A stretch of 60,438 bases of DNA from Dehalococcoidia bacterium (GCA_034421435.1 DAOUKJ010000037.1:1-60438), one strand, 5' to 3'. Positions 19,453 through 35,641 are shown, counted from the stretch's first letter. Notes: generated by a model not told the origin, from the letters alone. Numbers and translations: made by a program.

Positions 19453-19826
19453 GATTCCTCCTGCGCCTTTCCCGGCCTGAACCGCATGGCCGACCAAACG
19501 TCGTCCAGAGACACCTGCCGCACGCCTCGCAGTCCCTCACGCCTGAGCATGTCCCACAGCACGTCGCGGTTGAGGTCGGTGCCGAGCTGGCCGGCTTTCG
19601 GATAGGCGATGTATGCGATGGCGTCGCGCCGCGCCGCCTCCACGAACGGTGCCGAGTGCGGCGCAACCTCCGATGAGTCCCGCACGAATACGAGCACTGC
19701 GTCGGCCTGTTCGCCGGGGCCGGCAGTTCTAGTGGACTCAGGCAGTTCGAGTGAGAAATCCTCCGGCGCGTTGCCCACCAGCACGGAGGCTCCCGGCTTT
19801 ATCTGCAGCTTCGCGGCGACATCCAT
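19449..19826 (-). CDS. DUF3052-like small protein
   Basis: YPK...TDLNRD...W...VRQVSLDDVWSAMRF pattern. Its stop overlaps the ATPase start (GTGA). Confidence 0.7.
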   Translation of the reverse strand: MDVAAKLQIKPGASVLVGNAPEDFSLELPESTRTAGPGEQADAVLVFVRDSSEVAPHSAPFVEAARRDAIAYIAYPKAGQLGTDLNRDVLWDMLRREGLRGVRQVSLDDVWSAMRFRPGKAQEES

Positions 19827-19847
19827 AACGCTTTCCCCGTAGCGATA

Positions 19848-19896
19848 AGTATACATCATGGGATGATGCACAACAGATGGCTTGTCGTGATATAAT
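19848..19896. promoter_or_regulatory. Divergent promoter region with central palindrome
   Basis: Minus-strand TATACT (19848-53), CATCAT-ggg-ATGATG (19854-68), and plus-strand extended -10 TGATATAAT (19888-96). Confidence 0.55.
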
Positions 19897-19977
19897 GGCG
19901 ACCATCTAGGGGCCGCCGTGCGTATGGACTCGTAGCCCGCACCCGGCCGCCCAAAACGGCGGATCAAGGAGGATGCG

Positions 19978-22404
19978 ATGGCAGAGGTGTTCGAAGGACT
20001 CAAGGTCGTGGACTTCACCGAAGGGATGCTGGGAGCGGTGGCCACCATGGTGCTGTCGGACTTCGGGGCCGACGTGGTCAAGGTGGAACCGCCCGGAGGA
20101 CACCGGTCCAGGAGCATCCCGGCAGCCCAGCAGTGGAACCGCGGCAAGAGGAGCGTGGTGCTGGACCTGGAGAACGCTGAAGACCAGGAGAAGGCGCGAC
20201 GGCTGTCGCTTCAGTCGGACGTGGTCATCGAGAGCTTCACACCCGGCGCAACGTCCCGCATGGGCATCGACTACGAGACGCTCAGCGCCCAGCGCCCCGA
20301 TCTGGTGTACGTGTCGCTGACCGGCTGGGGCCAGAAGGGCCCTTACGCCCACTACAAGCCCTACGAGGGAGCTGTCGCAGCCAAGATCGGCAGGATGATG
20401 GTCTTCTCAGGGCAGGCCAACCGGCCGGGGCCTCACTACTCCGCGGTTCAGACCGCGACCCACGCAGCCAACATGGGCGCCGTGCGCGGCATCATCGCCG
20501 CCCTCCACGTGCGAGACAAGACGGGCCAGGGACAGAAGGTTGAGACCAGCCTGATGCAGACAATGAACCTCTACGAGTTCATTGACCTGGTCTTCTGGCA
20601 GATGATGGTCCGCTTCCCGGACATATTCACCGAGCACCCGTGGCTGCGCGGTTACCCCACGCTGGCCTACATACCGGTACGCACCAAGGACGGCGAGTGG
20701 ATACAGATGGCGAACACCGTGCAGCGCCTCTTTGTGGCTATGATGCACGACATCGGCCTGGGCTACATCTTCGAAGACCCGCGCTTCGAGAAGGCGCCCG
20801 TGCTCCTGCCAGAGGACCGGGAGGAACTGCGAATGATCATGCTGGCCCGCTTCCAGGAGCAGACCCTGGAGGAGTGGATGGACCTGTTCATCAACAAGAC
20901 CAGGGACGTGGCAGCAGAGCCATACCGCACTTCCGAGCAGGGCATGACCCATCCGCAGATGATCCACAACGGCCACGTCAGGGACGTGGAAGACCCGGTT
21001 GTCGGAATGATGAAGCAGCTAGGCCCAATCTCGCTCATGTCGGAAACGCCTGGCAGGATTCAGGGGCCTGCGCCGCTCCCCGGCCAGCACACGGAGGAGG
21101 TGCTGGCGTCGCTGAACGGCTCCAACGGCCATCATGCCAACGGCTACGGCTCCGAGCCTCTGCCGAAGCATCCGCTCGAGGACGTGACGGTGCTGGACCT
21201 GGCCACGGTCATCGCCGGGCCGCTGGGCTGCGCCCTCTTGGGCGAGATGGGCGCAAGGGTGATCCGCATCGAGCCGCCCGGAGGCGACCTGCTGCGCGGC
21301 ATGTCCAAGGGCGTAACCGCAAACAAGACCATGGCCGGCTCGGAGGGCGTGTGCCTTGACCTGAGCACGGAGGAGGGTCGCAGCATAGTGCATCAGCTGG
21401 TGGCCAAGGCGGACATCCTGGTGCACAACATGCGCCCCGGCGCGCCGGAGCGCGTGGGCATAGGTTTCGACCAGCTCATGGAGATCAACCCGCAGCTGGT
21501 CTACGTCTACGCCGGAGGCTACGGCCCCACCGGCCCGCACTCGCACCGTCCGTCCATGCACCCCATACCCGGCGCCGTCTGCGGAGGCGTGGTCACTCAG
21601 ATGGGCAAGGGCGCCATACCGCCCGCCGACCAGGAAATGACGCTGGAGGAGATCAAGGAGACCTCGCGCCGGTTCGGCCGCGCCAACGAGGGCAACCCAG
21701 ATCCCAACTCCTCGATGGCCGTCTCCGTGGCGGCCCTGCTGGGCTTCCACGCCCGCAAGCGCACCGGCAAGGGCCAGTACGTGACATCGTCCATGATCCA
21801 GGCAAACGCCTACGCCAACGCCGACGACTTCTTCTGGTACGAGGGCAAGCCCGGGCGACCCCTGCCCGACGCCGACGGCTACGGCCTCCACGCGCTCTAC
21901 CGCCTCTACGAGGTCCAGAAGGGCTGGGTGTTCCTGGCCGCCCCTTGGGAAGAGGAGTGGCAGGCGCTCTGCGAGACCATCGGCCGACCGGACCTGCTCA
22001 CCGATACGCGCTTCGCCACGGCTGAGGCCCGCCGCGAGAACGACGACGCGCTGGTCGAGGAGCTTGGCGGCGTGCTGGCCACGCGAGAGCCAATGGAGTG
22101 GGAGAATCTGCTCGTAGACGCCGGCGTCACGTGCGTACGGGCAGAGGACTCCGGGCCTTACCAGTTCCACATGGAAGACCCGCACGTCCAGGAGAACGGC
22201 TATCTCACGGAGGTGGAGTCGGTGAGGTTCGGCAAGTTCATGCGATACAGTCCCATTGTGCGGTTCTCGCAGACCACCCCCAGGGCGGGCGCAGGCCCCC
22301 TGCGAGGCCAGCACAACGACTCAGTGCTTGGGGAACTCGGCTACAGCGCCGACCAGATAGCGGACATGGAGGAGCGTCGCGTCATCGCGAGGGAGGAAGT
22401 GTAG
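19978..22404 (+). CDS. Tandem-fused class III (CaiB/BaiF) CoA-transferase 1
   Basis: Two CaiB repeats (GADVVKVEPP...NRGKRS; GARVIRIEPP). Candidate catalytic Asp575 in NPDPNS. Confidence 0.92.
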   Translation: MAEVFEGLKVVDFTEGMLGAVATMVLSDFGADVVKVEPPGGHRSRSIPAAQQWNRGKRSVVLDLENAEDQEKARRLSLQSDVVIESFTPGATSRMGIDYETLSAQRPDLVYVSLTGWGQKGPYAHYKPYEGAVAAKIGRMMVFSGQANRPGPHYSAVQTATHAANMGAVRGIIAALHVRDKTGQGQKVETSLMQTMNLYEFIDLVFWQMMVRFPDIFTEHPWLRGYPTLAYIPVRTKDGEWIQMANTVQRLFVAMMHDIGLGYIFEDPRFEKAPVLLPEDREELRMIMLARFQEQTLEEWMDLFINKTRDVAAEPYRTSEQGMTHPQMIHNGHVRDVEDPVVGMMKQLGPISLMSETPGRIQGPAPLPGQHTEEVLASLNGSNGHHANGYGSEPLPKHPLEDVTVLDLATVIAGPLGCALLGEMGARVIRIEPPGGDLLRGMSKGVTANKTMAGSEGVCLDLSTEEGRSIVHQLVAKADILVHNMRPGAPERVGIGFDQLMEINPQLVYVYAGGYGPTGPHSHRPSMHPIPGAVCGGVVTQMGKGAIPPADQEMTLEEIKETSRRFGRANEGNPDPNSSMAVSVAALLGFHARKRTGKGQYVTSSMIQANAYANADDFFWYEGKPGRPLPDADGYGLHALYRLYEVQKGWVFLAAPWEEEWQALCETIGRPDLLTDTRFATAEARRENDDALVEELGGVLATREPMEWENLLVDAGVTCVRAEDSGPYQFHMEDPHVQENGYLTEVESVRFGKFMRYSPIVRFSQTTPRAGAGPLRGQHNDSVLGELGYSADQIADMEERRVIAREEV

Positions 22405-22495
22405 TACGGCTGGATACGAGGCGGGCTAGGGCGAAATTATTACAATTTTGAGACTGGCCTGCCCTTGGCCCAAAGCTGCGGGACGTGACCGCCAC

Positions 22496-22525
22496 TTGAC
22501 ATTGAACTCGTGTCTGTGGTAGACT
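22496..22525 (+). promoter_or_regulatory. sigma70-type promoter
   Basis: TTGACA-N18-TAGACT with a TG extension. Confidence 0.7.
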
Positions 22526-22582
22526 CCCGCAATCGGTAGCTGACCCGACCAAATCGCGGCAATTCGCTACAACGGAGGGGAA

Positions 22583-24541
22583 ATGTTACGAAAAGCGGTG
22601 CACCTTAGGACTTTGGTCGCAATGCTGCTCGGCGTCGTGCTTGTGGCGGCCGTGGCGTGTGGAGAGGATCCCACGGCCACTCCCCAGCCCACAAACACGC
22701 CCGTACCGCCGACAGCGACTCCTGAGCCAACTGAGGCCATGATGGAGCCTACAGAGGCTATGATGGAGCCCACAGAAGCGCCTGTGGCAGAGACCAGCCA
22801 GGCCAACCTTGGTCTGAGCGCACAGGCCGTCAAGGACCACCCCATGTTCAGGCCGGAGTGGGGCGAGCCGCAGTACGGCGGCACCATCAGGATGCGCACC
22901 AACGTGCCGGTTAGGACCGGCTCCCCGTACAGGGGCAGCGGCAACAGCCACTACACAGGCAACCAGATGACCTTCCGTGACACGCTGGTCATGGTAGACC
23001 CGTGGATCGGCTGGTCCGGCGGCATCCAGGGCAACGTTGCGGAGAGCTGGGAAGTTTCGGACGACCAGCTCACGTACACGTTCTACCTCCGCGATGGGAT
23101 CATGTTCCACGAGAAGACGGAAGCGCACCAGGTGGACATGCCCGGATTCGGACAGGAACTGGTGTGCGAGGACGTTGCCTCCCACATGAACTTCATCGGC
23201 TCCGACCGCTACTGGGACGAGGGAGGCTCACTCTCCTCGCTGGTTCCCGGCGGCACCACTTGGACCTGCCCGGACGGCCCTGAGGGCTACACCGCCCAGG
23301 CCGTGCTGGACAGCGGCATCCCCTTCCCCGGCATCCTGAACCTGCTCAGCATGCCGGGCGTGTACGGCATCTCCAACAAGGACTGGCTCGACTGGTCCCT
23401 GGAGACGCTGGACGTCCAGGAGATCCGCACGTACCCTGAGTACACGATCCACCTGGGTACCGGGCCCTTCATGCCCGGCGACCTCACTCCCGAGGTTGTA
23501 GCACAGGGCACCAGGAACCCGAACTACTGGAAGGACGGCCTGCCGTTCCTGGACGTCTTCGAGTACCACACCATCGCAGACCCGGCCACGGCTTTCGCCA
23601 GCTTCTCCACGGGCAAGATCGACCTCATGGGCCACGGCAGCGGCTCACCCTACCCCGCCCAGGTGGAGCAGGCCAACCGCGACTTCCCTGAGCTGGCATT
23701 CGCGCCCAATCACTACTTCGGTGGCAGGGCCGTGGGCTTCAACACCGAGAAGCCGCCGTTTGACGACGTGCGGGTGCGCCGCGCCGTGAACCTGGTCATC
23801 GACCGGGCTGCCTGGAAGGAATTCCAGAACATCCCCGGCACCGACCTCCACGCCGGCTACATTCCGGCTGGATTCTTCAACGCCGAGGGGCGGGCATTCG
23901 ACCCGATGGGCCACTCGGTTGAGGAGATTCTCACCTGGGACGGATGGCGACAGCCCAAGGACGATGACATCGCCCTGGCGGTGAGCCTCATGGACGAGAT
24001 CTACGGCCCCGGTGAGAGGCCTGGCCCGTTCCAGTGCCTGTCCAGGGCGGACGACACGTCCACCAACGCCTGTCTGTTCATGGGTGGCACCATTCAGGAG
24101 CACCTGGGCCTGGAACTCAGCCTGGATACCTATGACCCCGCCACCCTGTCGTCGCAGCTCAACGCCTGCCAGCACACCTTCGCCGTGACCGTCATGCCGG
24201 GCTGGGAAGGCACGCCAGACCCGTACCTGCGATACAGGACGTACCACTCCGAGCTGAGGGGTGCAAGGTCCTGCATGGGCGGAGTGGATCCGGACGTGCA
24301 GTCCAGGCTGAACTCTCTAGTCAACGACTTCCTGGTGGAGTTGGACTTCACCAAGAGGACTGAGATCAGCAAGGAGATCGAGTACATCATGTACAACGAG
24401 TTCATCCCGGCGGCCCCAAAGGAGTGGCAGGTGCTGTTCACCGGCTACCAGCCGTGGGTGAAGGGGTTTGACATCCTGCCGGACCAGTCCGTGCACACGT
24501 CTCACCTCAAGATACACCAGCGCACCTGGGTAGCCAGGTAG
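22583..24541 (+). CDS. ABC substrate-binding lipoprotein, family 5 (Opp/Dpp/Nik)
   Basis: Lipobox AAC, Pro/Thr linker with three 21-nt EPTEAMM-type repeats (22724-22786), and AESWEVSDD...YTFYLR, GTGPF, RNPNYW and DVRVRRA motifs. Confidence 0.9.
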   Translation: MLRKAVHLRTLVAMLLGVVLVAAVACGEDPTATPQPTNTPVPPTATPEPTEAMMEPTEAMMEPTEAPVAETSQANLGLSAQAVKDHPMFRPEWGEPQYGGTIRMRTNVPVRTGSPYRGSGNSHYTGNQMTFRDTLVMVDPWIGWSGGIQGNVAESWEVSDDQLTYTFYLRDGIMFHEKTEAHQVDMPGFGQELVCEDVASHMNFIGSDRYWDEGGSLSSLVPGGTTWTCPDGPEGYTAQAVLDSGIPFPGILNLLSMPGVYGISNKDWLDWSLETLDVQEIRTYPEYTIHLGTGPFMPGDLTPEVVAQGTRNPNYWKDGLPFLDVFEYHTIADPATAFASFSTGKIDLMGHGSGSPYPAQVEQANRDFPELAFAPNHYFGGRAVGFNTEKPPFDDVRVRRAVNLVIDRAAWKEFQNIPGTDLHAGYIPAGFFNAEGRAFDPMGHSVEEILTWDGWRQPKDDDIALAVSLMDEIYGPGERPGPFQCLSRADDTSTNACLFMGGTIQEHLGLELSLDTYDPATLSSQLNACQHTFAVTVMPGWEGTPDPYLRYRTYHSELRGARSCMGGVDPDVQSRLNSLVNDFLVELDFTKRTEISKEIEYIMYNEFIPAAPKEWQVLFTGYQPWVKGFDILPDQSVHTSHLKIHQRTWVAR

Positions 24542-24561
24542 AACCCAAGCGCAGAATGGGA

Positions 24562-24600
24562 GCACCGACGGGATGGGGACACTCTCCATCCCGTCGGTGC
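24562..24600 (+). terminator. 15-bp stem-loop after the SBP gene (terminator or mRNA stabiliser)
   Basis: GCACCGACGGGATGG-N9-CCATCCCGTCGGTGC; no U-tract. Confidence 0.65.
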
Positions 24601-24756
24601 AATCCCAGATCCGGCTACGTGACCTAGACAAATCAACGGACCCCGACTCCGCTGACTCGGACGTTCGACTGCCGGAGCAGCAGCAATTGTTTTCCCGGGC
24701 CTGCTAGCGGGCCAACCCTCTGGAGGGACTGCTTCCAACCGCAGGGAGGGCTATAA

Positions 24757-25722
24757 GTGACACAGTACATCATCAGGCGTATCCTGCAGGGATTCCTGGC
24801 GGTCTTCGTGGTGAGCGTCATCATCTTCCTGCTCATCCGAGTTGCGCCCGGCGACGTGGCCCTCATGGTCATCTCCCAGGGCGAGGAGGACTTCAACCGG
24901 GAGGACGTTGATCCCATCGTTCTCGAGCGGGTGACGCGACTCCTGGGGCTGGACCGCCCCCTGTACATGCAGTACCTGGTCTGGGCTTGGGACATGTTGA
25001 CCCTGGACTGGGAGGCGTCCTTCTACACCTCCAAGCCCATCATGGAGGAGTTTCTTGAGAGAGCGCCCGTCACGCTCCAGTTGGGCATATACAGCGTGTT
25101 GCTGTCCGTCATCATCGGCTTGCCCATAGGCATCATGATGGCGCTCAAACAAGACGGGTGGATGGACTACGTAGGGCGTATCGTCTCGCTTGCCGGTCTC
25201 TCCATGCCTAACTTCTGGCTGGCCACGCTGTTGATCGCAGGGGGAGTGTACTTCTTCGACTGGTCGCCAAGACTGCAGTTTGAGCATCCCTGGGAGAACC
25301 TGGCGGGCAACATCAGCATCCTGTTCTGGCCGGCCATCATCGGCGGATTCGCTTCTGCGGCCACCAAGGCCCGGATGATGCGCTCCACAATGCTGGAGGT
25401 GCTCAGGCAGGACTACGTGAGGACGGCCCACGCCAAGGGCCTGCGATACTCCGTGGTGGTGTACCGGCACGCTATGAAGAACGCGTTGCTTCCTGTAGTC
25501 ACCATTATTGGAATCTCCGCAGCAGTGATCATTGGGGGCTCCGTAATAACGGAGACCATCTTCCAGCTGCCGGGCATCGGCATCTACGTGGTCCGCGGCA
25601 TGAACCAGCGCGACTTCCCAGTCGTGCAGAGCATGGTGTGCATAATCGCCGCGTGGATAATCTTCGTCAACCTGGCAGTAGACGTTACATACGCCTGGCT
25701 GGACCCTCGGATCCGGTACTAG
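24757..25722 (+). CDS. Opp/Dpp-type ABC permease (OppB-like)
   Basis: Motifs APGDVA, LGLDRP, MPNFW and MLEVLRQDYVRTAHAKGL (EAA loop). Confidence 0.92.
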   Translation: MTQYIIRRILQGFLAVFVVSVIIFLLIRVAPGDVALMVISQGEEDFNREDVDPIVLERVTRLLGLDRPLYMQYLVWAWDMLTLDWEASFYTSKPIMEEFLERAPVTLQLGIYSVLLSVIIGLPIGIMMALKQDGWMDYVGRIVSLAGLSMPNFWLATLLIAGGVYFFDWSPRLQFEHPWENLAGNISILFWPAIIGGFASAATKARMMRSTMLEVLRQDYVRTAHAKGLRYSVVVYRHAMKNALLPVVTIIGISAAVIIGGSVITETIFQLPGIGIYVVRGMNQRDFPVVQSMVCIIAAWIIFVNLAVDVTYAWLDPRIRY

Positions 25723-25744
25723 CCTCGGCCAAGGAGACGGTGAA

Positions 25745-26638
25745 GTGATAGAAGCAGCCAGAGCACGGCAAACGGGCGTAGCACCCAGGCTTCGCGAGAT
25801 CTTCAAGTCCACCAAGACGTTCTTCAGGCGCAAGCCATTGGGGGCCATCGGAGGCTCCATCATCTTTGGGATGGTGATGATCGCCATCTTTGCTCCCCTC
25901 GTGACGTTCTACGAGCCCACCCGCACCAGCTTCGGCAACGACCTCCAGGCGCCCTCCCTGACGCACTGGATGGGGACCGACACCTGGGGCCGCGACGTGT
26001 GGACGCGGATCGCTTACGGCGCCCGCATCTCCCTCTACGTGGGCCTGCTGTCCGTTGCCACCGGCTCTCTCGGCGGAGCGTTGGTAGGCCTGGTGAGCGC
26101 CTACTACGGCGGTAAGGTGGACGCCGTCATTCAGCGCATCATGGACTCCCTGATGGCCATACCCACGCTCATCCTGGCGCTGGCAATCATGTCCGCGCTC
26201 GGGCAGAGCCTCAACAACGTGGTTCTGGCAATCGCTATCCCACAGATACCGCGATCCAACCGCGTGGTTCGCTCGCAGGCGCTCGCAGTGAAGGAGAGCG
26301 AGTTTGTACTCGCGGCAAGAGCCATCGGCTCATCCGACATGCGAATCATTCTTCAGCACGTAATGCCGCAGTGCGTGGCGCCGTGGCTCATCATCGCCAC
26401 GGCCGGCTTGGGTACCGCCATCATTGCAGAGGCCGGCCTGAGCTTCCTGGGACTCGGCGTGCCGGAGCCCTCCCCCTCCTGGGGCAGCATGCTGACCGGT
26501 CGCGTCCGCAACTACTATGCCGTGGCGCCCTGGCTGGCCATCTGGCCCGGCCTGGCAATCTCCGTGGCTGTGTATGGATTCAACCTATTCGGCGATGCCC
26601 TCCGTGACGTGCTGGATCCCAGACTCAGAGGCACGTAG
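25745..26638 (+). CDS. Opp/Dpp-type ABC permease (OppC-like)
   Basis: Motifs HWMGTDTWGRD, EFVLAARAIG, EAGLSFLGLG and NLFGDALRDVLDPR. Confidence 0.92.
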   Translation: MIEAARARQTGVAPRLREIFKSTKTFFRRKPLGAIGGSIIFGMVMIAIFAPLVTFYEPTRTSFGNDLQAPSLTHWMGTDTWGRDVWTRIAYGARISLYVGLLSVATGSLGGALVGLVSAYYGGKVDAVIQRIMDSLMAIPTLILALAIMSALGQSLNNVVLAIAIPQIPRSNRVVRSQALAVKESEFVLAARAIGSSDMRIILQHVMPQCVAPWLIIATAGLGTAIIAEAGLSFLGLGVPEPSPSWGSMLTGRVRNYYAVAPWLAIWPGLAISVAVYGFNLFGDALRDVLDPRLRGT

Positions 26639-26704
26639 CGCCTCACTGCCCTGACGCGCGCCCGGAACAAGGGCCCTCGCCCGTTGGTAGTAAAGGAGGC
26701 TGCC

Positions 26705-29182
26705 ATGGCAGGACCTTGCAGTGGGTATACCGTTCTGGACTTCAGCTTCGGGATGCCGGGCGCTCTGGCCACCGCCGTACTTGCCGACTTCGGCGCCGAG
26801 GTGGTCAAGGTCGAGCCTCCCTCAGGCGATCCCTACCGTGGACAGGGCAACTGGCTTGCCTGGAACCGCGGCAAGAAGAGCATCACGCTTGACCTGGACA
26901 CCGAGGAGGGCCGCGAGCAGGCGCAAGCACTGGCCCGCAAAGCCGACGTCGTGGTGGAGAGCTTCCGCCCAGGCGTCAGCAGCGCCAAGGGCATCGACTA
27001 CGATACCCTCTCGGCCGCTAACCCCATGCTGGTCTACTGCTCCATCACGGGGTTCGGCCAGAAGGGGCCGCTGAGCGGCTACAAGGACTACGAGGGCGTC
27101 ATCGCCGCCAAGAGCGGCCGAATGGCCACGTGGGGAGGACAGCTTGACAGACCCGGCCCGGTGTACGCAGCCGTCCGCACCGCAACGTGGGCTTCAAGCC
27201 AGGGAGCCGTGCGCGGCATTCTGGGCGCACTCCGCCTGCGAGACCGGCTGAGCCGCGGCCAGTGGGTGCAGACCAGCGTGGTGCAGGGCATGATCCCCTA
27301 CTACGGCGGCCGGCCTCTGTCCATTCACTTCGCCCGGAAGGACTCGGAGCGATTCCCGTCCGCCGGCCAGGGACCTCAGACGCTTCCAACGCTCGAGTAC
27401 ATTCCCGTGCGCACCAAGGACGGGCGATGGCTCCAGCACGCCAACAACCGCCAGGGGCCAAGGCTCCTGCCCGCCCACCTCAGGGCCATCGGTCTGGGAT
27501 GGGTACTGGAGGACGAGCGATACAAGAACGTCTTTGCCCTGCCGGAGGACCGCAGGGAGGAGTTGCGCGAGCTAATCCTTGAGAAGATGCAGGAGAAGAC
27601 CGTCGACGAGTGGATGGAAATCTATGTGGAGGACGGCGACATCGCAGCGGAGCCGTACGTGTACACGGTCGAGGGCATGAAGCACCCGCAGTTCCTCCAC
27701 AACAAGCACGTGGTTGACATAGACGACCCGCGAGTGGGGCCTATGAAGGTGGTGGGACTCGTGGCCGACCTGTCGGAGACGCCCGGCGAGGTTGGCGGCC
27801 CCGCGCCGTATCTCGGCGAGCACACCGCCGACGTCCTCGAAGGTATCGAGGAGCGCGTTCCCGTAGCTCCGGCGGGCGCCAGCAATGGACACGGCAATGG
27901 TCACACACCCGCCTACCTGCTCGACGGCGTCACCGTGCTGGACTTCTCCACCGTCATCGCGGGGCCGTACGGCGCGTCCATGATCGCAGACTTGGGCGCA
28001 CGCGTCATCAAGGTGGACGCCACGCCCGGCCGCGCTCCCGCGACCAGACCCGGCGGCGTTCAGAACCTCATGACCATGCGCACGTACGCCGGCAAGGAGT
28101 GCATCCAGGTTGACCTCCAGACTCCGGAGGGCCAGGAGCTTATCCACAAGCTGGTGGCCCAGTCCGACGTCCTGCTGCACAACTTCCGGCCCGGCGTGCC
28201 CAACCGGCTGGGCATCGACTACGAGACCTGCCGGCAGATCAACCCACGCATGGTGCACGTCTACGTGGGCGCATACGGCGCAACCGGCCCGCACAGCCGG
28301 CGGCCGGGCGCGCACCCGGTTCCAGGCGCGCTCTTCGGCGGAGCGCTCAGGCAGGCAGGCAAGGCCATGCCTCCCCCCACCTACCAGCCCATGAGCATGG
28401 AGGAGATCAAGGACACGTCCCGCCGCATGATGCGCGCCAACGAGGGCAACCCGGACCCCAACTCCTCGCAGGCCGTCGGGACCGCCATCATGCTCGGCCT
28501 GCTGGCAAGGGAGCGCACGGGTCAGGGCCAGGCCATACAGGCGACGATGATGTGCGCCAACGCATGGGCCAACCACGACGAGGCCTACGACTACAACGGG
28601 CGGCCACCCTACGCCGTGCCGGACGCGGACTGCTACGGCCTGCACGCCCTCTACAGGATCTACGAGGCGAGCGACGGCCATGTCTTCCTGGCATGCCCGT
28701 TTGAGGAGGAGTGGCAAGCGCTCTGCCACGCCATCGGACGGTCGGACCTCATCGGAGACCCGCGGTTCGCGCCGGCGGCCCGCAAGTCGCATGACGAGGA
28801 GCTCATCGAGCAGTTGGCCGCGGTGTTCGCCACACGCACGGCCGCGGAGTGGGAGGATCTGCTGACCGCCGAGGACGTGGCCTGCGTACGCGTATCCAAC
28901 AGCGACGACTCGGAGGAGTTCTATCTGGACCATCCGCAGTCGCTGGAGAACGGCTTTGCCGTCCACACCGAGTCGGACAGCCCCAGGTTCGGCGGATACA
29001 TGCGACCGGGCGGCATCGTTCACATGTCGGAGACCCCCGGCCGCTACAGGGCGGCCCCGTACCCCGGCCAGCATACGCAGGTGGTCATGCGGGAGATGGG
29101 CTACGGGGAAGCGGAGATAGAGGCGTACAAGGAGCGGAGCATCGTGCACTGGGAGGAGCCCAACCCCTGGTTCACGAGCTGA
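26705..29182 (+). CDS. Tandem-fused class III CoA-transferase 2
   Basis: Two CaiB repeats, Asp584 in NPDPNS, and AAGGAGG before ATG 26705. Confidence 0.92.
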   Translation: MAGPCSGYTVLDFSFGMPGALATAVLADFGAEVVKVEPPSGDPYRGQGNWLAWNRGKKSITLDLDTEEGREQAQALARKADVVVESFRPGVSSAKGIDYDTLSAANPMLVYCSITGFGQKGPLSGYKDYEGVIAAKSGRMATWGGQLDRPGPVYAAVRTATWASSQGAVRGILGALRLRDRLSRGQWVQTSVVQGMIPYYGGRPLSIHFARKDSERFPSAGQGPQTLPTLEYIPVRTKDGRWLQHANNRQGPRLLPAHLRAIGLGWVLEDERYKNVFALPEDRREELRELILEKMQEKTVDEWMEIYVEDGDIAAEPYVYTVEGMKHPQFLHNKHVVDIDDPRVGPMKVVGLVADLSETPGEVGGPAPYLGEHTADVLEGIEERVPVAPAGASNGHGNGHTPAYLLDGVTVLDFSTVIAGPYGASMIADLGARVIKVDATPGRAPATRPGGVQNLMTMRTYAGKECIQVDLQTPEGQELIHKLVAQSDVLLHNFRPGVPNRLGIDYETCRQINPRMVHVYVGAYGATGPHSRRPGAHPVPGALFGGALRQAGKAMPPPTYQPMSMEEIKDTSRRMMRANEGNPDPNSSQAVGTAIMLGLLARERTGQGQAIQATMMCANAWANHDEAYDYNGRPPYAVPDADCYGLHALYRIYEASDGHVFLACPFEEEWQALCHAIGRSDLIGDPRFAPAARKSHDEELIEQLAAVFATRTAAEWEDLLTAEDVACVRVSNSDDSEEFYLDHPQSLENGFAVHTESDSPRFGGYMRPGGIVHMSETPGRYRAAPYPGQHTQVVMREMGYGEAEIEAYKERSIVHWEEPNPWFTS

Positions 29183-29233
29183 CGCTCCCGAATGAACGTT
29201 TGTAGCGCAATCAGATCAAAGAGGAGGTGAGGT

Positions 29234-29644
29234 ATGCCCAAGACCATTCCGGTACCCGATGCGGTGGACAAGCCCTTCTGGGACGCCGTGAACGAGAAGA
29301 GGCTTTTGCTACAGCACTGCGCGGAATGCGACAAACTCCAGTACCCCATAAAGGCGACGTGCGGGCATTGCGATACCAAGGACCCCCTGGGCTGGAAGGA
29401 GGTTGAGGGGAAGGGACACATCCTGGAGACCCTGGTGGTCCACGACACCCGCGTGGTGCGCCTCAAGGGCGACGTGCCCTTCAACGTCGCCATAGTCTCG
29501 CTGGATGAGGACCCGTCGATCAACTTCCTGGCCAACCTGCCAGGCACGCCGGTCAACGAGGGCCCGCAGGGCGCGGCCGTGGAGGTGGTCTACGAAGAGC
29601 TGGAGCCGGGAGTGTTCATCCACGACTGGAAGGTTGTGGAGTAG
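29234..29644 (+). CDS. DUF35 zinc-ribbon/OB-fold protein
   Basis: PFWDAV, CAEC...CGHC zinc ribbon, then an OB fold. Confidence 0.88.
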   Translation: MPKTIPVPDAVDKPFWDAVNEKRLLLQHCAECDKLQYPIKATCGHCDTKDPLGWKEVEGKGHILETLVVHDTRVVRLKGDVPFNVAIVSLDEDPSINFLANLPGTPVNEGPQGAAVEVVYEELEPGVFIHDWKVVE

Positions 29645-29708
29645 TTGGGAGAGATCCCGACACCGGAGCGGCTCCAAATTCACTGTCAACCCGATATAGG
29701 AGGAAGCA

Positions 29709-31028
29709 ATGACTAGCAGCGCTGGAGGATTCCCCAGATACGCAGAGGGAATGGGCCTCTGGGAGCACCGCGGCAAGGTGGCAGTAGTTGGCTACGGGTA
29801 CTCCGCCATCGACCGCCGCTGGGACGGCGTGAGCATGGACAGAACCCTGGGCGCCTTTCAGCTCGCCGCCATGCAGAACGCCATCGAGGACGCCGGTCTG
29901 ACTGCCGCGGACATCGACGGCTTCATGTGCAGCGAGGCCATGGCCGGCGACACGTGGGCACAGGAAGACCGCGGCGACCCAAGGCCATACTTCGACCCGC
30001 CCTACGACTCGGAGGACGGCCTCAGCCTCACCTCCGCCGACTGGCTCATCGCCGGCATGGCGCGCGAGGGCACGCCACTCTCCAATCTCCAGTGGATCGA
30101 CCGCAACGAGCTCGCAATTGGTCAGGAGACCGGCAAGGCTGCGCAGGCCGTGGGAGACGGCATGGCCAACGTCCTGCTCATGACCTACAACATGGGCAAC
30201 GTCCCCGGCAGGTACAAGCTGGAAGAAGGCGCCTACTCCGAGGGCGGACGCAAGTGGTCGGCGCCCTGGGGTTGGATGACCTCCGCCATGATGCAGCACG
30301 CCTTCGTGTTCATGCAGTACTGCACCAAGTACGGCGGCAGCCACGACGACCTGGCACCGTTCGTGCTCAACCAGCGCAGGAACGGCCTGCTCACGCCGTG
30401 GGGCTACTACGCGCAGCACGAGCCCTACCAGATCACGCTGGAGGACTACCTGACCCAGCGCTACATCTGCTGGCCCAACGGACTGCTCGACTCCGACCGG
30501 CCGGTCAATCACGCGTTCGCCATGATCTTCACCACCGCCGAGCGCGCCAAGGACATGAAGCAGAAGCCCATCTACGTCCTGAGCCACGTTCAGGCCAGCC
30601 ATCCAACCAAGACCACCATGGCCACCCTGGAAGACCACGAGGCGTGGACGTACAGCCTGGCTCGCAGGCTGTACGAGGGCGCAGGAGCGCGGCCGGAGGA
30701 CCTTGACATCTTTAACCCCTACGACGGGTTCGCCACCTTCACGCAGAGCTACCTGGAAGGCTTCCAGTGGCACGGCGTCAAGCGCGGCGAGGCGTTCGAC
30801 TTCTACGCCGGCGACATACGGGTTGAGGGGCCTCACCCCTTCAACTCCAGCGGCGGCAACCTAGGTTGCGGACGCACCCGCACGGCCATGTACACGGACA
30901 GCATCGAGCAGCTCCGCGGCACCGCGGGCGATCGCCAGGTGACCGTCCGCGCCGAGACCGCGGCCATGGGCCAGGTCACGCCCGGAGGCAACGGCCACAT
31001 CTTCCTGAGCGTGCACCCGCAGATCTAG
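29709..31028 (+). CDS. Thiolase-fold protein (SCP-x/Ltp2-like), lacking the nucleophilic Cys
   Basis: Motifs VAVVGYG, AIEDAGL, YDGF, NSSGGNLG and EQLRG. Confidence 0.85.
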   Translation: MTSSAGGFPRYAEGMGLWEHRGKVAVVGYGYSAIDRRWDGVSMDRTLGAFQLAAMQNAIEDAGLTAADIDGFMCSEAMAGDTWAQEDRGDPRPYFDPPYDSEDGLSLTSADWLIAGMAREGTPLSNLQWIDRNELAIGQETGKAAQAVGDGMANVLLMTYNMGNVPGRYKLEEGAYSEGGRKWSAPWGWMTSAMMQHAFVFMQYCTKYGGSHDDLAPFVLNQRRNGLLTPWGYYAQHEPYQITLEDYLTQRYICWPNGLLDSDRPVNHAFAMIFTTAERAKDMKQKPIYVLSHVQASHPTKTTMATLEDHEAWTYSLARRLYEGAGARPEDLDIFNPYDGFATFTQSYLEGFQWHGVKRGEAFDFYAGDIRVEGPHPFNSSGGNLGCGRTRTAMYTDSIEQLRGTAGDRQVTVRAETAAMGQVTPGGNGHIFLSVHPQI

Positions 31029-31036
31029 CTCGCTCT

Positions 31037-31074
31037 AGCCCGGTCGGCGGCCGAAGCTGACCGCCGACCGGGTT
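31037..31074 (+). terminator. 12-14 bp stem-loop between the thiolase-like and HAD genes
   Basis: CCCGGTCGGCGG-N10-CCGCCGACCGGG. Confidence 0.6.
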
Positions 31075-31115
31075 GCGGCCTCACTCTCACCACAACTGCC
31101 ACAGGAGGACACTGC

Positions 31116-31568
31116 TTGGAGCAAAGGATACCTGCTACATCCAGCGAGGACGGCTCTGAAGGTGCAGCCGAAGGGCGCCCCATCGGCCTCATCAGCTTTG
31201 ACATCGACGGCACCCTGACCACGGGCCACGGCCCCGGCCCAATCACCAGGGACATGGTGGAGCGCGCCAAGGAGTGGGGCTACATCATCGGCAGCTGTTC
31301 CGACAGACCCGTGGGCGACCAGAAGAACATGTGGGAGACGTGGGGTATCGAGGTCTCGTTCACCGTGCTGAAGCACATGCTGGAAACCGTGAAGTCGCGC
31401 TTCGAAGCCGATTCATACGTCCACATCGGCGATACCGACGTGGACTATCACTTCGCGCGGGTGTCGGGCTTCGACTTCCTGCAGGTGCAGACTATGGACC
31501 CTGAGCCTTGGATGCTTAGCCCGGAGGACGGCCAGTGCCACTGGGGGCCTGAAGGCAGGACCCGGTAG
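31116..31568 (+). CDS. Minimal capless HAD-family hydrolase (intact motifs)
   Basis: Motifs FDIDGT, SCS, VLK and HIGDTDVD. AGGAGG precedes the TTG start. Confidence 0.8.
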   Translation: MEQRIPATSSEDGSEGAAEGRPIGLISFDIDGTLTTGHGPGPITRDMVERAKEWGYIIGSCSDRPVGDQKNMWETWGIEVSFTVLKHMLETVKSRFEADSYVHIGDTDVDYHFARVSGFDFLQVQTMDPEPWMLSPEDGQCHWGPEGRTR

Positions 31569-31581
31569 CACGCGGGCGCCG

Positions 31582-32028
31582 TTGGACCAGATTGCATCGG
31601 AGGAACCCACCCCGTTGAAGAGGCTCATCGCCTTTGACATAGACAACGTGCTTGAGATGTCCGCGGAGCCGGGCCCCGTTACACTGGCCATGGTGAGGCG
31701 GGCCCAGGACTTGGGCTACATCATAGGAAGCTGCTCGGACATCCCGGTGGCCCAGCAGCAGGCCATGTGGGAGAAGCACGGCGTTCCTGTGGACTTTACG
31801 GTGCTCAAGCACAGGTTGGATGAGATCAATGCCCAGTTCCAGGCTGATGAGTGCTACCTCGTCAGCCCCAGGGACACCGGCGATTACTCTCGGATTTATG
31901 GCTTTACGTTTCTGCCGGTTCACACCACCAGGGACCAGCCCTGGATGCTTGACGAGGCCGGGAGGCCCCTTCCATTCCCTGGTACTTCACCGCAGCTCTG
32001 GCAAACAGCCACAGGAGGAACACAGTGA
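31582..32028 (+). CDS. Minimal HAD-family paralog with degenerate motif IV
   Basis: FDIDNV, YIIGSCSD and FTVLKH are shared with the upstream gene. The GDxxxD position reads VSPRDTGD. Stop overlaps the next start. Confidence 0.72.
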   Translation: MDQIASEEPTPLKRLIAFDIDNVLEMSAEPGPVTLAMVRRAQDLGYIIGSCSDIPVAQQQAMWEKHGVPVDFTVLKHRLDEINAQFQADECYLVSPRDTGDYSRIYGFTFLPVHTTRDQPWMLDEAGRPLPFPGTSPQLWQTATGGTQ

Positions 32029-34490
32029 CTCAACCGCTTGACAACATCGTTGTGCTCGACTTTACGACGGGACGAGCAGGATCCGTCGCCACCATGGTTC
32101 TTTCAGACTTCGGCGCAGAGGTCATCAAGGTGGAGCCGCCGGAGGGCGACCCATACCGTCAGTTTCCACAGAGCCTGCTCTGGAACCGCGGCAAGAAGAG
32201 CGTTGTGCTCGACCTGAACACGCCTGAGGGCAAGGAGCGGGCGCGCGGGCTGCTGATGCAGGCTGACGTGGTCGTCGAGAGCTTCCGCCCGGGCGAGGCG
32301 GACGCGCTGGGCATCGGATACGATGAGGTCGCCGCTGAGCGGCCCGACCTCGTCTACTGCTCCATCACCGCCTTCGGCCCCAAGGGGCCGTACGCCCATT
32401 ACAAGCCCTACGACGGCGTTGTGGCCGCCAAGGTGGGGCGATTCTCGGTGTTCACCGGCCAGTCGAAGCGCCCAGGCCCACACTACGCGGCCGTGCAGGT
32501 CGCCAACCACGGCACAGCCATGGCAGCCGTCAGGGGCATCGTTTCCGCGCTATTGGTGCGTGAGAAGACGGGCGTGGGCCAGCACGTGGAGACCAGCCTG
32601 ATACAGGGCATCAGCCCGTTCGACGTGAACAACTGGCTTGTGTGGCAGATGATGATCAAGTTCCCGGACCGGTTCCAGGACGACCCGCAGTCCGATCCCA
32701 ACCGCCAGCCGGGCGTGGGCTACCAACCCGTCCGCACCAAGGACGGCCAGTGGATCCAGATGGCCAACATCATCGTCCGCCTCTTCCGCGAGTCGCTGGT
32801 GGTCATGGGCCTTGGTCACGTCCTCGAAGACCCGCGCTTCGCACGCGCCCCCACGCTCATGCCGGAGGAGCGCGAGGAGCTTCGCGCCATGGTCCTGAAC
32901 AAGGCCCTGGAGAAGACCGCCGATGAGTGGATGGACGTATTCGTAAATCAGACTGCGAACGTGGCCGCCGAGACGTTCCTGACCACGCAGCAGGGCATGG
33001 ACCACCCGCAGATCGTCCACAACCGCCACGTGGTTGAAGTGGACGACCCCACTGTCGGCCCCATGAGGCAGGTGGGAGTGCTGGTGCGACTGGACGAGAC
33101 GCCCGGCAGCGTGAAGGCGCCTGCCCCCACGCTCGGACAGCACACCGAGGAGGCCCTCGGCCTGCTGGAGGCGGCCCCCGCAGTGAGGGGCGCAACCAAC
33201 GGCGCGGCCGTGGAGCTTCCGGCGCATCCGCTCACGGGATACACCGTGCTTGACCTCTCGACAGTCATCGCAGGCCCGCTCTCCACGTCGCTCAACTACG
33301 AGCTGGGCGCAAGGGTGATCCGCATCGAGACCCTGGAGGGCGACACCATGCGCCGCAACTTTGATGGGCTGGGCGCAAACCGCACGCAGGCCGGCGCGGA
33401 GAACATCTCCATCAACCTGCAGACGCCGGAGGGCAAGGAGATCTTCGACCGGCTGGTGGCCAAGGTGGACATTCTTGTGCACAACATGAGGCCGGGCGCG
33501 CCGGAGCGCCTGGGCATCGGCTACGAGCAGGTCAAGCAGATCAACCCAGGCATCGTCTACGTGTACGCGGGCGGATACGGCGACACCGGTCCGCACTCGC
33601 ACCGGCCCGCCATGCACCCCATCGGCGGCGCGGTCACCGGCGGCGTCTTGCACCAGCTTGGCAAGTTCGAAATGCCTCCTGCAGACCAGACCATGACCAT
33701 CGAAGAGATCCAGGAGTTTGCCCGCCGCCTGGGTCGCTCCAACGAGACGAATCCCGACCCCAACTCCTCGATGGTGATCTCCACCGGCGCGCTGCTGGGT
33801 CTGTGCGCCCGCGAGCGGCACGGCGTGGGCGGCCAGTACGTCCTCTCGACGATGATCGGGGCGAACGCCTACGCCAACCTGGACGACTTCTTCTCCTATG
33901 ACGGCAAGCCGGAGCGCCTGATCCCGGACGCCGACGGCCACGGCCCCCACGCGCTCTACCGCCTCTACCAGGCGCGGCGAGGCTGGGTCTTCCTGGCATG
34001 CCTGTTCGAGGAGGAGTGGCAGACGCTGTGTCGAACGCTCGGCCTCGACGATATGCTCACTGACCCGCGCTTCTCGACTGAGGCAGCACGCCTGGAGAAC
34101 GACGACGCGCTGATCGAGCGGCTGCAGGAGGTCTTCTCGACCCGCAATCCCGCGGAGTGGGAGGAGCTGCTCATCGCCGAGGACGTGGCCTGCGTGGAGG
34201 TGGAGGAGAGTGGGATGTTCAACTTCTACTCGCAGGACCCGCACGTGGCGGAGAACGACTTCATCCAGCCCGCGGAGAGCCTGCGCATAGGAAGCTACTG
34301 GCGCTACGGGCCGGTGGTCAACCTTTCCCGCACGCCGAGCAGGGTCGGCTCCGGGCCGCTGAGGGGCCAGCACACCCGCAGCCTCCTCAGTGAGGTCGGC
34401 TACTCCGAGGCGGAGATAGACGAGCTGTACGAGAAGCAGGTGGTTGGCTCAGAGGAGCCCACCAAGTGGGACGAGGAGGCCGGGCACTAG
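32025..34490 (+). CDS. Tandem-fused class III CoA-transferase 3
   Basis: Two CaiB repeats, Asp578 in NPDPNS, and AGGAGG before GTG. Confidence 0.92.
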   Translation: MTQPLDNIVVLDFTTGRAGSVATMVLSDFGAEVIKVEPPEGDPYRQFPQSLLWNRGKKSVVLDLNTPEGKERARGLLMQADVVVESFRPGEADALGIGYDEVAAERPDLVYCSITAFGPKGPYAHYKPYDGVVAAKVGRFSVFTGQSKRPGPHYAAVQVANHGTAMAAVRGIVSALLVREKTGVGQHVETSLIQGISPFDVNNWLVWQMMIKFPDRFQDDPQSDPNRQPGVGYQPVRTKDGQWIQMANIIVRLFRESLVVMGLGHVLEDPRFARAPTLMPEEREELRAMVLNKALEKTADEWMDVFVNQTANVAAETFLTTQQGMDHPQIVHNRHVVEVDDPTVGPMRQVGVLVRLDETPGSVKAPAPTLGQHTEEALGLLEAAPAVRGATNGAAVELPAHPLTGYTVLDLSTVIAGPLSTSLNYELGARVIRIETLEGDTMRRNFDGLGANRTQAGAENISINLQTPEGKEIFDRLVAKVDILVHNMRPGAPERLGIGYEQVKQINPGIVYVYAGGYGDTGPHSHRPAMHPIGGAVTGGVLHQLGKFEMPPADQTMTIEEIQEFARRLGRSNETNPDPNSSMVISTGALLGLCARERHGVGGQYVLSTMIGANAYANLDDFFSYDGKPERLIPDADGHGPHALYRLYQARRGWVFLACLFEEEWQTLCRTLGLDDMLTDPRFSTEAARLENDDALIERLQEVFSTRNPAEWEELLIAEDVACVEVEESGMFNFYSQDPHVAENDFIQPAESLRIGSYWRYGPVVNLSRTPSRVGSGPLRGQHTRSLLSEVGYSEAEIDELYEKQVVGSEEPTKWDEEAGH

Positions 34491-34513
34491 AGCTTCCGCT
34501 CAATGCCGTTTGT

Positions 34514-34666
34514 CGCGCCCGCTCATATCCTTCGACCAGGCTCAGGATGAGCGGGCGCGGTGTTTGGCGTATCCACACCGCCCAAATGGTTCGACAGGCT
34601 CACCACGAGCGGTGCGATGTGGCCCGTCCCTTCCCCATCGATGAGGGAAGGTTGGGATGGGGGTGA
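34514..34666. repeat. Mosaic REP-like cassette (three palindromic modules)
   Basis: CCGCTCAT-..CCTTCGACCAGGCTCAGG-ATGAGCGG; CACCGC..TGGTTCGACAGGCTCACC..GCGGTG; CCCTTCCCCATCGATGAGGGAAGGTTGGGATGGGGGTGA. Confidence 0.8.
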
Positions 34667-34669
34667 ACG

Positions 34670-35641
34670 CTAACGCACCAGTCCCCGTCGAAGACCTAGC
34701 TTCTCGCGAAACTCCTCCGGTATGGAGTCCCATCTGTCAACGAGCAGGTCTACTAGTTGGCGCCCGTCTATAAGACCAATGCGTGGGAAGCCAGGCTCAA
34801 CGGCGATCTCCCTTGCCTTGGCTGGATAGCTGGCCGTCGTAATGAGTGCCCCCTGCCCATCCCTCGGTATGGATCCTCGGAACTCCCGCACGGTCTTCGC
34901 GCTCACTCTCGTTCCCTGCTTGTACCGCTTAGCCTGAACGAACAGCTTGACCTTGGCCAAGCCCGCCAGGTCGAGCTCTCCCATTACGTCCACGCCACCG
35001 TCGCCTGTCTTCCCAGTAACCTCGGTCTCTTCAAAGCCCAGGGCCGCTAGCAGGCTCTCTACCAGTTCCTCAAACTCGCCGGGAGCAAGCTCGAGAATCT
35101 GGTCCAGCACTACCCTGTACGGGTCTGCGGCTGTGGGCCTTGCCTTTGAGATCGACGCACCCGCTCCAACCCTGGAAAGGAACTCCTCGACGTGCGAGAC
35201 TGAGAACACAGTTTTCATCGCGCGGACAGTCTGTTGGAACGGTATGGAGAGTTCCGAGCGTCTGATGCGTGGCTCGGCCCAATCAACGTTCCAGCGATGA
35301 GGATATGGACAGCCGTCGGCGGCGTTCGGAGCGTAGTAGTAGGTGCCATCAGCCGGCACACGGCCGTAGTGCAGCCACTCAGTGTTGGCGGGAGGCGTAA
35401 TCACATAATCTCCTGGCTTGATGTCAAGGATAAATGCGGCTATTTGGCCTTGGTGGTTCCGGATGCGGCCGGTGTTCCTCAACGCTGGGTAAGCCTTCCA
35501 GAGCATATCCTGAACTTCCTCTCTGGATTGAACACCACTAAGGTCTGGAACAGCAAGCCACTCTATTCCGGCGTAGCCCCCATCCAGAAAGCGCTGCGCG
35601 TACTTCCCACCGTCAGCTCGTATGCACCACACTCTCACCAT
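34670..35641 (-). CDS. Mrr-like type IV restriction endonuclease
   Basis: C-terminal FEELV...GDGGVDV...VQAKRY (Mrr-type PD-(D/E)xK). N-terminal WCIRA...GIEW domain. More AT-rich. Confidence 0.85.
   Translation of the reverse strand: MVRVWCIRADGGKYAQRFLDGGYAGIEWLAVPDLSGVQSREEVQDMLWKAYPALRNTGRIRNHQGQIAAFILDIKPGDYVITPPANTEWLHYGRVPADGTYYYAPNAADGCPYPHRWNVDWAEPRIRRSELSIPFQQTVRAMKTVFSVSHVEEFLSRVGAGASISKARPTAADPYRVVLDQILELAPGEFEELVESLLAALGFEETEVTGKTGDGGVDVMGELDLAGLAKVKLFVQAKRYKQGTRVSAKTVREFRGSIPRDGQGALITTASYPAKAREIAVEPGFPRIGLIDGRQLVDLLVDRWDSIPEEFREKLGLRRGLVR

Follow-up and report, generated by a model that had tools for sequence, protein, structure and literature searches.

Two-domain type III coenzyme A (CoA) transferases, in which the catalytic aspartate (Asp) is present in the C-terminal domain only, were described by Dong et al., with DddD and PtmU4 as their characterised members (PMC6006322). 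Two further kinds of system resemble parts of the locus reported here, namely the bbs operon, in which the class III CoA-transferase (CoAT) BbsEF is encoded with the DUF35/thiolase pair BbsAB, and the aldolases Ltp2 and Sal, which have the DUF35 partners ChsH2 and Shy (PMC12329534). An expansion of the CaiB/BaiF family has been reported in SAR202 by Landry et al. (PMC5395668) and Bayer et al. (PMC6306507), and a shuffling of CoA into degradation pathways that is free of adenosine triphosphate (ATP) has already been proposed for SAR202 and sponge Chloroflexota (PMC5395668, PMC6306507). Here we analysed a stretch of 60,438 nucleotides (nt) from a Dehalococcoidia bacterium (GCA_034421435.1, DAOUKJ010000037.1:1-60438), hereafter the window. 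Ten co-oriented genes, all on the plus strand at positions 19978-34490, encode three fused CoATs (A, B and C), a solute-binding protein (SBP), two permeases, a DUF35 protein, a thiolase-superfamily protein (ThlL) and two small HAD-like proteins (HAD1 and HAD2), in the order A-SBP-permease-permease-B-DUF35-ThlL-HAD1-HAD2-C.

We read this locus as a self-contained cassette for the uptake, CoA shuttling and carbon-carbon (C-C) cleavage of an imported carboxylic acid, a reading to which we give roughly even weight, while our confidence in any specific step of the pathway is far lower. In the literature searched, we found no description of an operon with an importer, DUF35/ThlL, mini-HADs and transferases of B versus A/C types. 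What appears to be new is the cassette, above all its core of DUF35, ThlL (motif YDGF) and mini-HAD, recurrently coupled to CoA-activating enzymes.

The fused CoA-transferases

A, B and C each carry two full-length matches to PF02515 (class III, CaiB/BaiF/Frc; E ~1e-159 to 1e-164; lengths in Table 1), with pairwise identities of 49% (A-B), 57% (A-C) and 51% (B-C), which confirms the three paralogues with two class III repeats proposed in the initial annotation of this DNA. The residues named there were also exact, as position 161 in the N repeat is Thr in A, Thr in B (TATW) and Asn in C, and the C repeat holds an Asp within the motif NPDPNSS (D575 in A, D584 in B and D578 in C). The seven positions before and the seven after site 161 contain no acidic residue in any of the three proteins. 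In hidden Markov model (HMM) alignments to the solved structures of YfdW and the Brucella formyl-CoA transferase (Frc), T161 of A stands opposite the catalytic Asp (D169 of YfdW), and with the C half as query it is D575 that stands opposite the same Asp, past an insertion of ~20 residues specific to the C repeat. An Asp placed at the N-repeat site by structural alignment, which would speak against half-active enzymes, was not found; the site is occupied by T161 in A. Across these alignments, the halves of A, B and C were closest to Frc, YfdW and SUGCT-type transferases.

The AlphaFold 2 model of A, built with 121 homologues, reached a pLDDT of 93.7 and a pTM of 0.95, and places residues 161 and 575 at the N-terminal ends of equivalent long helices (159-182 and 574-596). 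In Foldseek, single chains of BbsEF, YfdW, Frc and SUGCT fit one half each time (TM-score 0.75-0.85, target). Sequence and model together support the proposal that A, B and C are intramolecular pseudo-dimers with a single catalytic Asp in the C repeat, and A would presumably have an interlocked-dimer fold. Their predicted function is CoA transfer via an Asp-CoA thioester.

This architecture belongs to a large family. The first homologue search returned more than 3,175 homologues at E <= 1e-10, and the named ones came from Dehalococcoidia, Chloroflexota or SAR202 metagenome-assembled genomes (MAGs). Among 121 homologues of A (55-99% identical to A), the position of D575 is Asp in every one, and the N-repeat site is Ser in 67, Cys in 27, Thr in 11, Asn in seven, Tyr in four, His in two, Gly in two and Asp in one, followed by His in 110 of the 121. 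The single homologue with Asp at both sites (P0112, 58% identical to A, N site VADHAAG) is either a reversion or a two-site enzyme, and it corrected the statement that the N site is never Asp. Fused enzymes on plasmids of Rhodococcus, Sphingomonas and Sinorhizobium, which are only 30-37% identical to A, B and C, have the same one-Asp pattern; for a 736-aa (amino acid) fused gene on a Sinorhizobium plasmid (L004), an identity as dddD could not be shown. When the halves of the fused proteins from Chloroflexota and from these three genera were separated and placed with single-domain enzymes in a neighbour-joining distance tree without support values, the N halves formed one group and the C halves another, apart from most single-domain enzymes, which fits a single old fusion behind the two-domain enzymes. 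The missing N-repeat Asp thus appears, from these sequences, to be a family-wide trait that was already known and is not peculiar to the locus. The initial annotation had offered the half-active fused enzymes as candidates for something new, and this part of it is unsupported or overstated, since the class has been described (PMC6006322).

The likeness of A, B and C to DddD and PtmU4/PtnU4 extends to the tandem PF02515 domains, the poorly conserved linker and the catalytic Asp in the C-terminal repeat only (PMC6006322). At least one of A, B and C could accordingly be conceived as a CoA-transferase/lyase on dimethylsulfoniopropionate or a related onium or osmolyte carboxylate, releasing for example dimethyl sulfide; the shared architecture, the marine and sponge sources of the relatives, and SAR202 CaiB/BaiF paralogues with DddD as top Swiss-Prot match (PMC5395668) are in its favour. 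However, DddD, which we compared by description and published tree, is the outgroup to the other two-domain enzymes in that tree (PMC6006322), and the halves here most resemble transferases of the Frc, YfdW and SUGCT type. The gene context is also an importer with DUF35, ThlL and HADs instead of ddd genes or the ptm cluster, and three paralogues of two types share one operon. Clusters of ddd genes encode the BCCT transporter DddT and the dehydrogenases DddB and DddC. At this locus, the transporter is instead an Opp-type ATP-binding cassette (ABC) importer with an SBP_bac_5 protein, accompanied only by DUF35, ThlL and HADs, and dddB/dddC-type dehydrogenases are absent. We regard a DddD-like activity as highly improbable.

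The three enzymes fall into two conserved types, one (B) encoded upstream of DUF35 and the other (A/C) encoded ahead of the importer genes (A) or after the HADs (C). B-type genes, as orthologues or paralogues, lie directly upstream of DUF35 in L005, L010-L016, L020, L021 and L048, and are parted from it by other genes in L006, L008 and L009 (by one CoAT) and in L019. The three enzymes may act on successive substrates.

DUF35, ThlL and the mini-HAD proteins

DUF35 proteins are the usual partners or scaffolds of thiolase-superfamily enzymes. The one encoded here has a canonical zinc-ribbon motif, CxxC-x10-CxxC, in keeping with the C4 zinc-ribbon pattern of DUF35 partners (PMC12329534). For ThlL, Pfam detects only the C-terminal domain of SCP-x-type thiolases. 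With a family profile of 45 sequences, its best PDB match was the steroid side-chain retro-aldolase Ltp2 (6ok1, 1e-28), followed by 4u4e, 9myr, 7yvy and BbsB, the last far weaker at 1e-16, and PhlC was a weak match; the entries comprise an uncharacterised Sphaerobacter 'thiolase', a 'nonspecific lipid-transfer protein' (9myr) and an acetyl-CoA acetyltransferase (7yvy).

The motif of SCP-2 thiolases is HDCF, and thiolases of the SCP-x type combine a nucleophilic Cys with catalytic residues in HDCF and GHP. In ThlL the corresponding motif, Y338-D339-G340-F341, is invariant among 45 homologues, as are R389 and R391, and Y338 is aligned with Tyr294 of Ltp2. The motif reads YDCY in Sal, YDHF in Ltp2 and YDCF in the trypanosomal SLP, with the Tyr as catalytic base and the thiolase nucleophile absent (PMC12329534). 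The N-terminal domain of ThlL is divergent, aligns poorly and contains a family-specific insertion of ~55 aa (RWDGxSMD, FDPPYDSEDGL). No nucleophilic Cys of thiolases could be aligned in it, and the stretch at the expected Cys loop reads I-G-(Q/E)-x-x-G; the nucleophile is likely, although not proven, to be absent from ThlL, as it is from Ltp2 and Sal.

Because the motif is of the aldolase type and Ltp2 is the closest relative, retro-aldol cleavage by ThlL seems more likely than thiolysis, and ThlL is probably an aldol-lyase. The 'thiolase-fold' of the initial annotation thus stands as a superfamily assignment (PF22691), but without catalytic residues of the thiolase type. The likeness to the Ltp2-ChsH2 and Sal-Shy pairs includes the C4 zinc-ribbon DUF35 partner and the Tyr of YDxF (PMC12329534). 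However, Gly stands in place of His or Cys as the third residue of the motif, an Arg takes the position of Ltp2 Tyr344, the large N-terminal insertion is present, DUF35 is free-standing and not fused to a MaoC hydratase, a mini-HAD is a conserved third partner, and a steroid-degradation context is lacking. We read ThlL as a putative third variant of the thiolase-fold aldolases, and not as a thiolase.

Thiolytic beta-oxidation of the bbs type would assign different roles to the same genes: the CoATs would activate an alkyl- or aryl-succinate-type dicarboxylate, DUF35-ThlL would be a true thiolase like BbsAB, and the dehydrogenase and hydratase steps would be encoded elsewhere. The pairing of class III CoATs with a DUF35/thiolase-fold pair is indeed the same, as had been pointed out in the first annotation, and BbsF, BbsE and BbsB all turned up in the PDB and Foldseek comparisons, with BbsF one of the best fold matches of A (TM-score 0.76-0.78, target). 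The analogy goes no further, as BbsEF consists of two separate subunits (of which BbsE may lack the Asp, as hinted at by PDB titles on a D178-CoA adduct) and BbsB is a true thiolase. The bbs operon also contains genes for an acyl-CoA dehydrogenase (ACAD), a hydratase and a dehydrogenase, whereas ACAD, enoyl-CoA hydratase (ECH) and hydroxyacyl-CoA dehydrogenase genes are absent from 19978-34490 and from its conserved copies. Together with the much better match to Ltp2, YDGF in place of HDCF, an Arg opposite the catalytic His and no aligned Cys nucleophile, this makes a bbs-like pathway improbable in our view.

The 'HAD module' first annotated beside this pair is present as HAD-like reading frames, but consists of two mini-HADs of ~115 aa, the second degenerate. 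All four phosphatase motifs of HAD1 (FDIDGT, GSCSDR, VLKH and GDTDVD) are conserved across 38 homologues, with motif IV as GDTxxD, and HAD1 and its homologues are capless HADs with a core of ~113 aa. With 281 representatives among 1.84 billion, this is a small family whose members nearly always stand alone, and 150 representatives yielded no informative Rosetta-stone fusion. In HAD2, motif I reads DIDNV and motif IV is lost (SPRDTGD), and the second HAD copy is likewise degenerate in L011, L014, L015, L018, L020 and L021, so that the sequences suggest an active/inactive pair.

Conservation and layout of the cassette

At least eight Dehalococcoidia genomes carry the full ten-gene order. It was found in L011, L013-L016, L020 and L021, while L005, L010 and L012 show a truncated version. 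The genomes with this order are Dehalococcoidia MAGs, whose proteins are 66-99% identical to those of the window. Orthologues of A (85-95% identical) occupy the same position in all seven loci with the full order, and orthologues of C (78-99%) do so in L005, L010-L017, L020 and L021. A second cassette close by in L006, L008 and L009, which is an old paralogue, preserves the order SBP-permease-permease-CoAT-CoAT-DUF35-ThlL at identities of 53% (SBP), 73-76% (permeases), 68% (B-type), 61% (A-type), 52% (DUF35) and 50% (ThlL). Transposase genes (DDE_Tnp_1, HTH_Tnp_1) lie between two cassettes in L008 (15087-20949) and also in L006 and L009, which suggests that the cassette was duplicated or rearranged by insertion sequences. 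Partial forms were found in L017 (DUF35-ThlL-HAD-C type) and in L018 and L019 (fused transferase, DUF35, ThlL and two HADs). In L048 (1-11300), a permease, OppD/F-type ATPases, two sulfatases, and a TauE/SafE exporter are encoded directly upstream of a B-type fused transferase, DUF35 and ThlL, a hint that sulfated compounds are fed into the same core in some lineages.

The ThlL alignment was scanned against one genome per species, giving 302 relatives, and neighbourhoods were counted in the best 80 loci (79 for the CoAT counts). These loci span Dehalococcoidia, Alpha- and Betaproteobacteria, Nitrospinota and Entotheonella. In 77 of the 80, DUF35 adjoins ThlL; the two are an obligate gene pair across phyla, and a mini-HAD directly follows ThlL in ~32-35 of the 80, in several phyla. 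Of 79 loci, 29 have a class III CoAT within 10 kb, and in 15 it is a direct neighbour. Single-domain CoATs that are non-orthologous to the fused halves adjoin DUF35-ThlL in L027, L038, L043 (CoAT-DUF35-ThlL-CoAT) and L059 (CoAT-CoAT-DUF35-ThlL). Four single-domain CoATs stand in a row by the DUF35-ThlL-HAD core in L041, L045, L067, L072 and L075 (~13.4-21.3 kb); in some of them the catalytic position holds Glu or lacks an acid, and they may correspond, as unfused heterodimers, to the fused enzymes. An ADP-forming acyl-CoA synthetase was found near DUF35-ThlL in 16 loci. In 19, a thiamine diphosphate (ThDP) enzyme (PRK06154-like) is encoded directly upstream of the pair, for example in the Alphaproteobacteria L083, L025, L022, L047, L057 and L062; among solved structures it is nearest to glyoxylate carboligase and 2-hydroxyacyl-CoA lyase/oxalyl-CoA decarboxylase. 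As an acyl-CoA synthetase or ThDP enzyme is found where a CoAT is missing, the substrate of DUF35-ThlL is likely a CoA thioester that is supplied differently by lineage.

Members of a massively expanded paralogue family may also become neighbours by chance, in which case there would be no common pathway and the synteny would reflect recent ancestry only. The size of the family and its known expansion (PMC5395668, PMC6306507) lend themselves to this explanation, and so does a downstream array of four tandem MFS_3-type transporters with a MarR regulator (window 36906-43523, minus strand), which is syntenic in the same clade (L005, L010, L013-L016, L020 and L021). Because of this array, the ten-gene synteny was downgraded as proof of function and is weak evidence alone. 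Moreover, P0010, which at 67% identity is the nearest homologue that A has outside the clade, has a different context, with MaoC, ACAD and ECH as neighbours. However, the paralogous cassette holds its order at 50-76% identity, CoAT-DUF35-ThlL recurs in L018, L019 and L048 and DUF35-ThlL-HAD-C type in L017, and non-orthologous CoATs have been recruited to the same core elsewhere. In the window, the co-orientation of the ten genes, intergenic gaps of 13-215 bp, the overlap of HAD2 and C by four bases and unrelated genes on both sides also count for one cassette; the borders are a divergent ABC-2 exporter operon upstream (17690-19497, minus strand) and a convergent gene for an Mrr-type nuclease downstream (34670-35641, minus strand). 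We therefore rate chance clustering as very unlikely, and the proposal in the initial annotation that the gene set is co-conserved, rather than scattered paralogues, is borne out by the ten-gene order, the paralogous cassette and the non-orthologous CoATs beside DUF35-ThlL.

Neighbouring genes in other lineages are of catabolic types (sulfatases, amidohydrolases, fumarylacetoacetate hydrolase, PrpD and HpcH aldolase), and this bears on whether the core might be anabolic. DUF35-ThlL would then form C-C bonds or transfer acyl groups, in the manner of PhlABC or ACAT/HMGS/DUF35, and the fused CoATs would provide acyl-CoAs or alter them, like PtmU4 in the formation of thioacids. Two-domain type III enzymes have a biosynthetic precedent in PtmU4 (PMC6006322), DUF35 proteins scaffold biosynthetic thiolase complexes (PMC12960953, PMC12329534), and PhlC does appear among the weak PDB matches of ThlL. 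The catabolic neighbours, the dedicated importer inside the operon, and the absence from the locus of an HMGS- or PhlA-like partner, a sulfur carrier and an adenylating enzyme all argue against such a role, for which the probability appears very small.

Gene calls and Pfam matches bear out the gene content and coordinates first annotated for the 14.5 kb locus (Table 1). The reading frame of B opens at a TTG (26684), and its probable start is the first ATG. The SBP has an N-terminal signal peptide with a lipobox (VAAVAC), followed by a linker rich in Pro, Thr and Glu. Its PDB matches were weak and mixed, to peptide, nickel and opine binders, and an assignment of its ligand from these relatives was dropped for that reason; none of its characterised relatives is close. 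By sequence, the SBP and the two permeases would supply the membrane components of an ABC importer of the Opp/Dpp/Nik type, so that the transporter of the initial annotation is present in these three components, but lacks an ATPase gene among the window genes scanned.

Table 1. Features of the locus, with positions counted from the first nucleotide of the window
Feature	Position	Strand	Details
CoA-transferase A	19978-22404	+	808 aa; PF02515 x2, E 6.5e-159; A/C type
SBP_bac_5 solute-binding lipoprotein, Opp/Dpp/Nik-type	22583-24541	+	652 aa; PF00496, E 1.8e-36
Perfect 38-nt hairpin	24562-24599	+	dG -48.6 kcal/mol, z -8.4
ABC importer permease 1, DppB/NikB-like	24757-25722	+	PF00528 + PF19300; NCBIfam Opp2B/NikB-like matches, sub-cut-off
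ABC importer permease 2, DppC/NikC-like	25745-26638	+	PF00528 + PF12911
CoA-transferase B	26705-29182	+	825 aa; PF02515 x2, E 7.5e-161; B type
DUF35 protein, zinc ribbon + OB fold	29234-29644	+	PF12172 + PF01796
ThlL, thiolase superfamily, SCP-x/Ltp2 type	29709-31028	+	439 aa; PF22691
HAD1, mini-HAD	31116-31568	+	weak Pfam HAD and DUF7124 matches; four phosphatase motifs
HAD2, degenerate HAD1 paralogue	31582-32028	+	sequence reading
CoA-transferase C	32025-34490	+	821 aa; PF02515 x2, E 4.8e-164; A/C type

The hairpin begins 20 nt past the stop codon of the SBP gene and has no T-run, and its arms vary in a compensatory fashion in L011, L013 and L016. It is probably an element that stabilises or processes the mRNA and raises the expression of the SBP relative to the permeases. 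A scan of 19000-35800 against Rfam gave no match, and a scan for promoters and terminators gave counts no better than shuffled sequences; promoter-like sites upstream of A and of the SBP gene are plausible by position only.

Elsewhere in the window, a 726-aa fusion of a catalytic domain like that of class I cysteinyl-tRNA synthetase with a GT2 glycosyltransferase (53371-55551, minus strand) and a DinB/mycothiol-S-transferase-like protein (9553-10077, minus strand) may indicate a pathway for a low-molecular-weight thiol. Other candidates for CoA-ester C-C lyases or synthases are a malate-synthase-like protein of 973 aa, whose N-terminal extension is long (5227-8148, minus strand), and an HpcH/CitE-like lyase near it (10166-11011, minus strand). 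A leucine-rich-repeat protein of a eukaryote-like kind is encoded at 47208-48134 (minus strand). Sponge-associated MAGs (RHO1_bin_9, Langseth and Entotheonella) are the source of several related loci, and for this reason the host organism may be a sponge symbiont.

Predicted pathway and significance

In the pathway that we propose, the SBP and permeases would import a carboxylic acid, with the ABC ATPases encoded elsewhere, and the B-type transferase, next to DUF35, would activate this acid without ATP, with a short acyl-CoA as the donor of CoA. DUF35-ThlL, as a complex, would then split the acyl-CoA in a retro-aldol-type reaction, and the products would be a short acyl-CoA and a carbonyl compound. 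The A/C-type transferases would hand on the CoA, with the next substrate molecule, a second carboxyl group or a product as acceptor; CoA would cycle in this way and, as it is recycled by these enzymes, no ATP would be spent on activation. HAD1 and the presumably inactive HAD2 could act as an accessory phosphatase or belong to the ThlL complex as a subunit. An aldehyde product would fit the gene for a molybdenum-cofactor large subunit of the aldehyde-oxidase family that directly follows the two HADs in L018 (7567-9918). A gene of homologous type, for a molybdopterin aldehyde-oxidase/xanthine-dehydrogenase large subunit, is present in the window 10 kb downstream of the cassette (44429-46756, plus strand).

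Besides the shared synteny of the MFS array and the context of P0010, several observations weigh against this cassette reading. No class III CoAT lies within 10 kb in 50 of the 79 ThlL loci, and the scanned genes of the window include none for an OppD/F-type ATPase. In ThlL, R389 at the position of Ltp2 Tyr344 also stands opposite the catalytic His of 7yvy, the invariant G340 is at the position of Ltp2 His296 and Sal Cys304, the second catalytic residue of both known aldolase types (Ltp2 Tyr344, Sal Cys304) is missing, and the absence of the nucleophilic Cys is judged from a weak N-domain alignment. The phosphatase has no obvious role in the scheme, and the imported substrate, probably a beta-hydroxy or otherwise oxygenated acid, is not readable from sequence.

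A bolder version of the pathway, which we consider unlikely, would have DUF35, ThlL, HAD1 and HAD2 form one C-C lyase complex of a hitherto unrecognised kind, using Tyr338 with Arg389/Arg391 as a new catalytic set and containing a minimal phosphatase with its inactive partner, fed by the CoATs. The 'dead' N site of the latter ([Ser/Cys/Thr]-His) would be re-used for binding, regulation or lyase chemistry, and the whole would be an ATP-free, CoA-cycling system for unrecognised oxygenated or phosphorylated acids, used by abundant Chloroflexota of the sea and of sponges and by some Proteobacteria.

In the deep ocean and in sponge microbiomes, few heterotrophs are as abundant as SAR202 and its relatives in the Dehalococcoidia. 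It has been proposed, without operon-level evidence, that these bacteria use their expanded CaiB/BaiF family to funnel recalcitrant organic matter into metabolism ATP-free. While the papers on this expansion treat the family in bulk (PMC5395668, PMC6306507), the cassette, from the same protein family and, by the names of the matches, the same lineage, is an operon-level unit that is concrete and testable, with a binding protein, two types of putative one-site fused transferases and a DUF35/ThlL/mini-HAD core. The thiolase-fold aldolases, which attract interest as biocatalysts, could gain a third catalytic variant from it. As the core is also present in Proteobacteria, Nitrospinota and Entotheonella, knowledge of its ligand and reaction would give a function to hundreds of unannotated genes.

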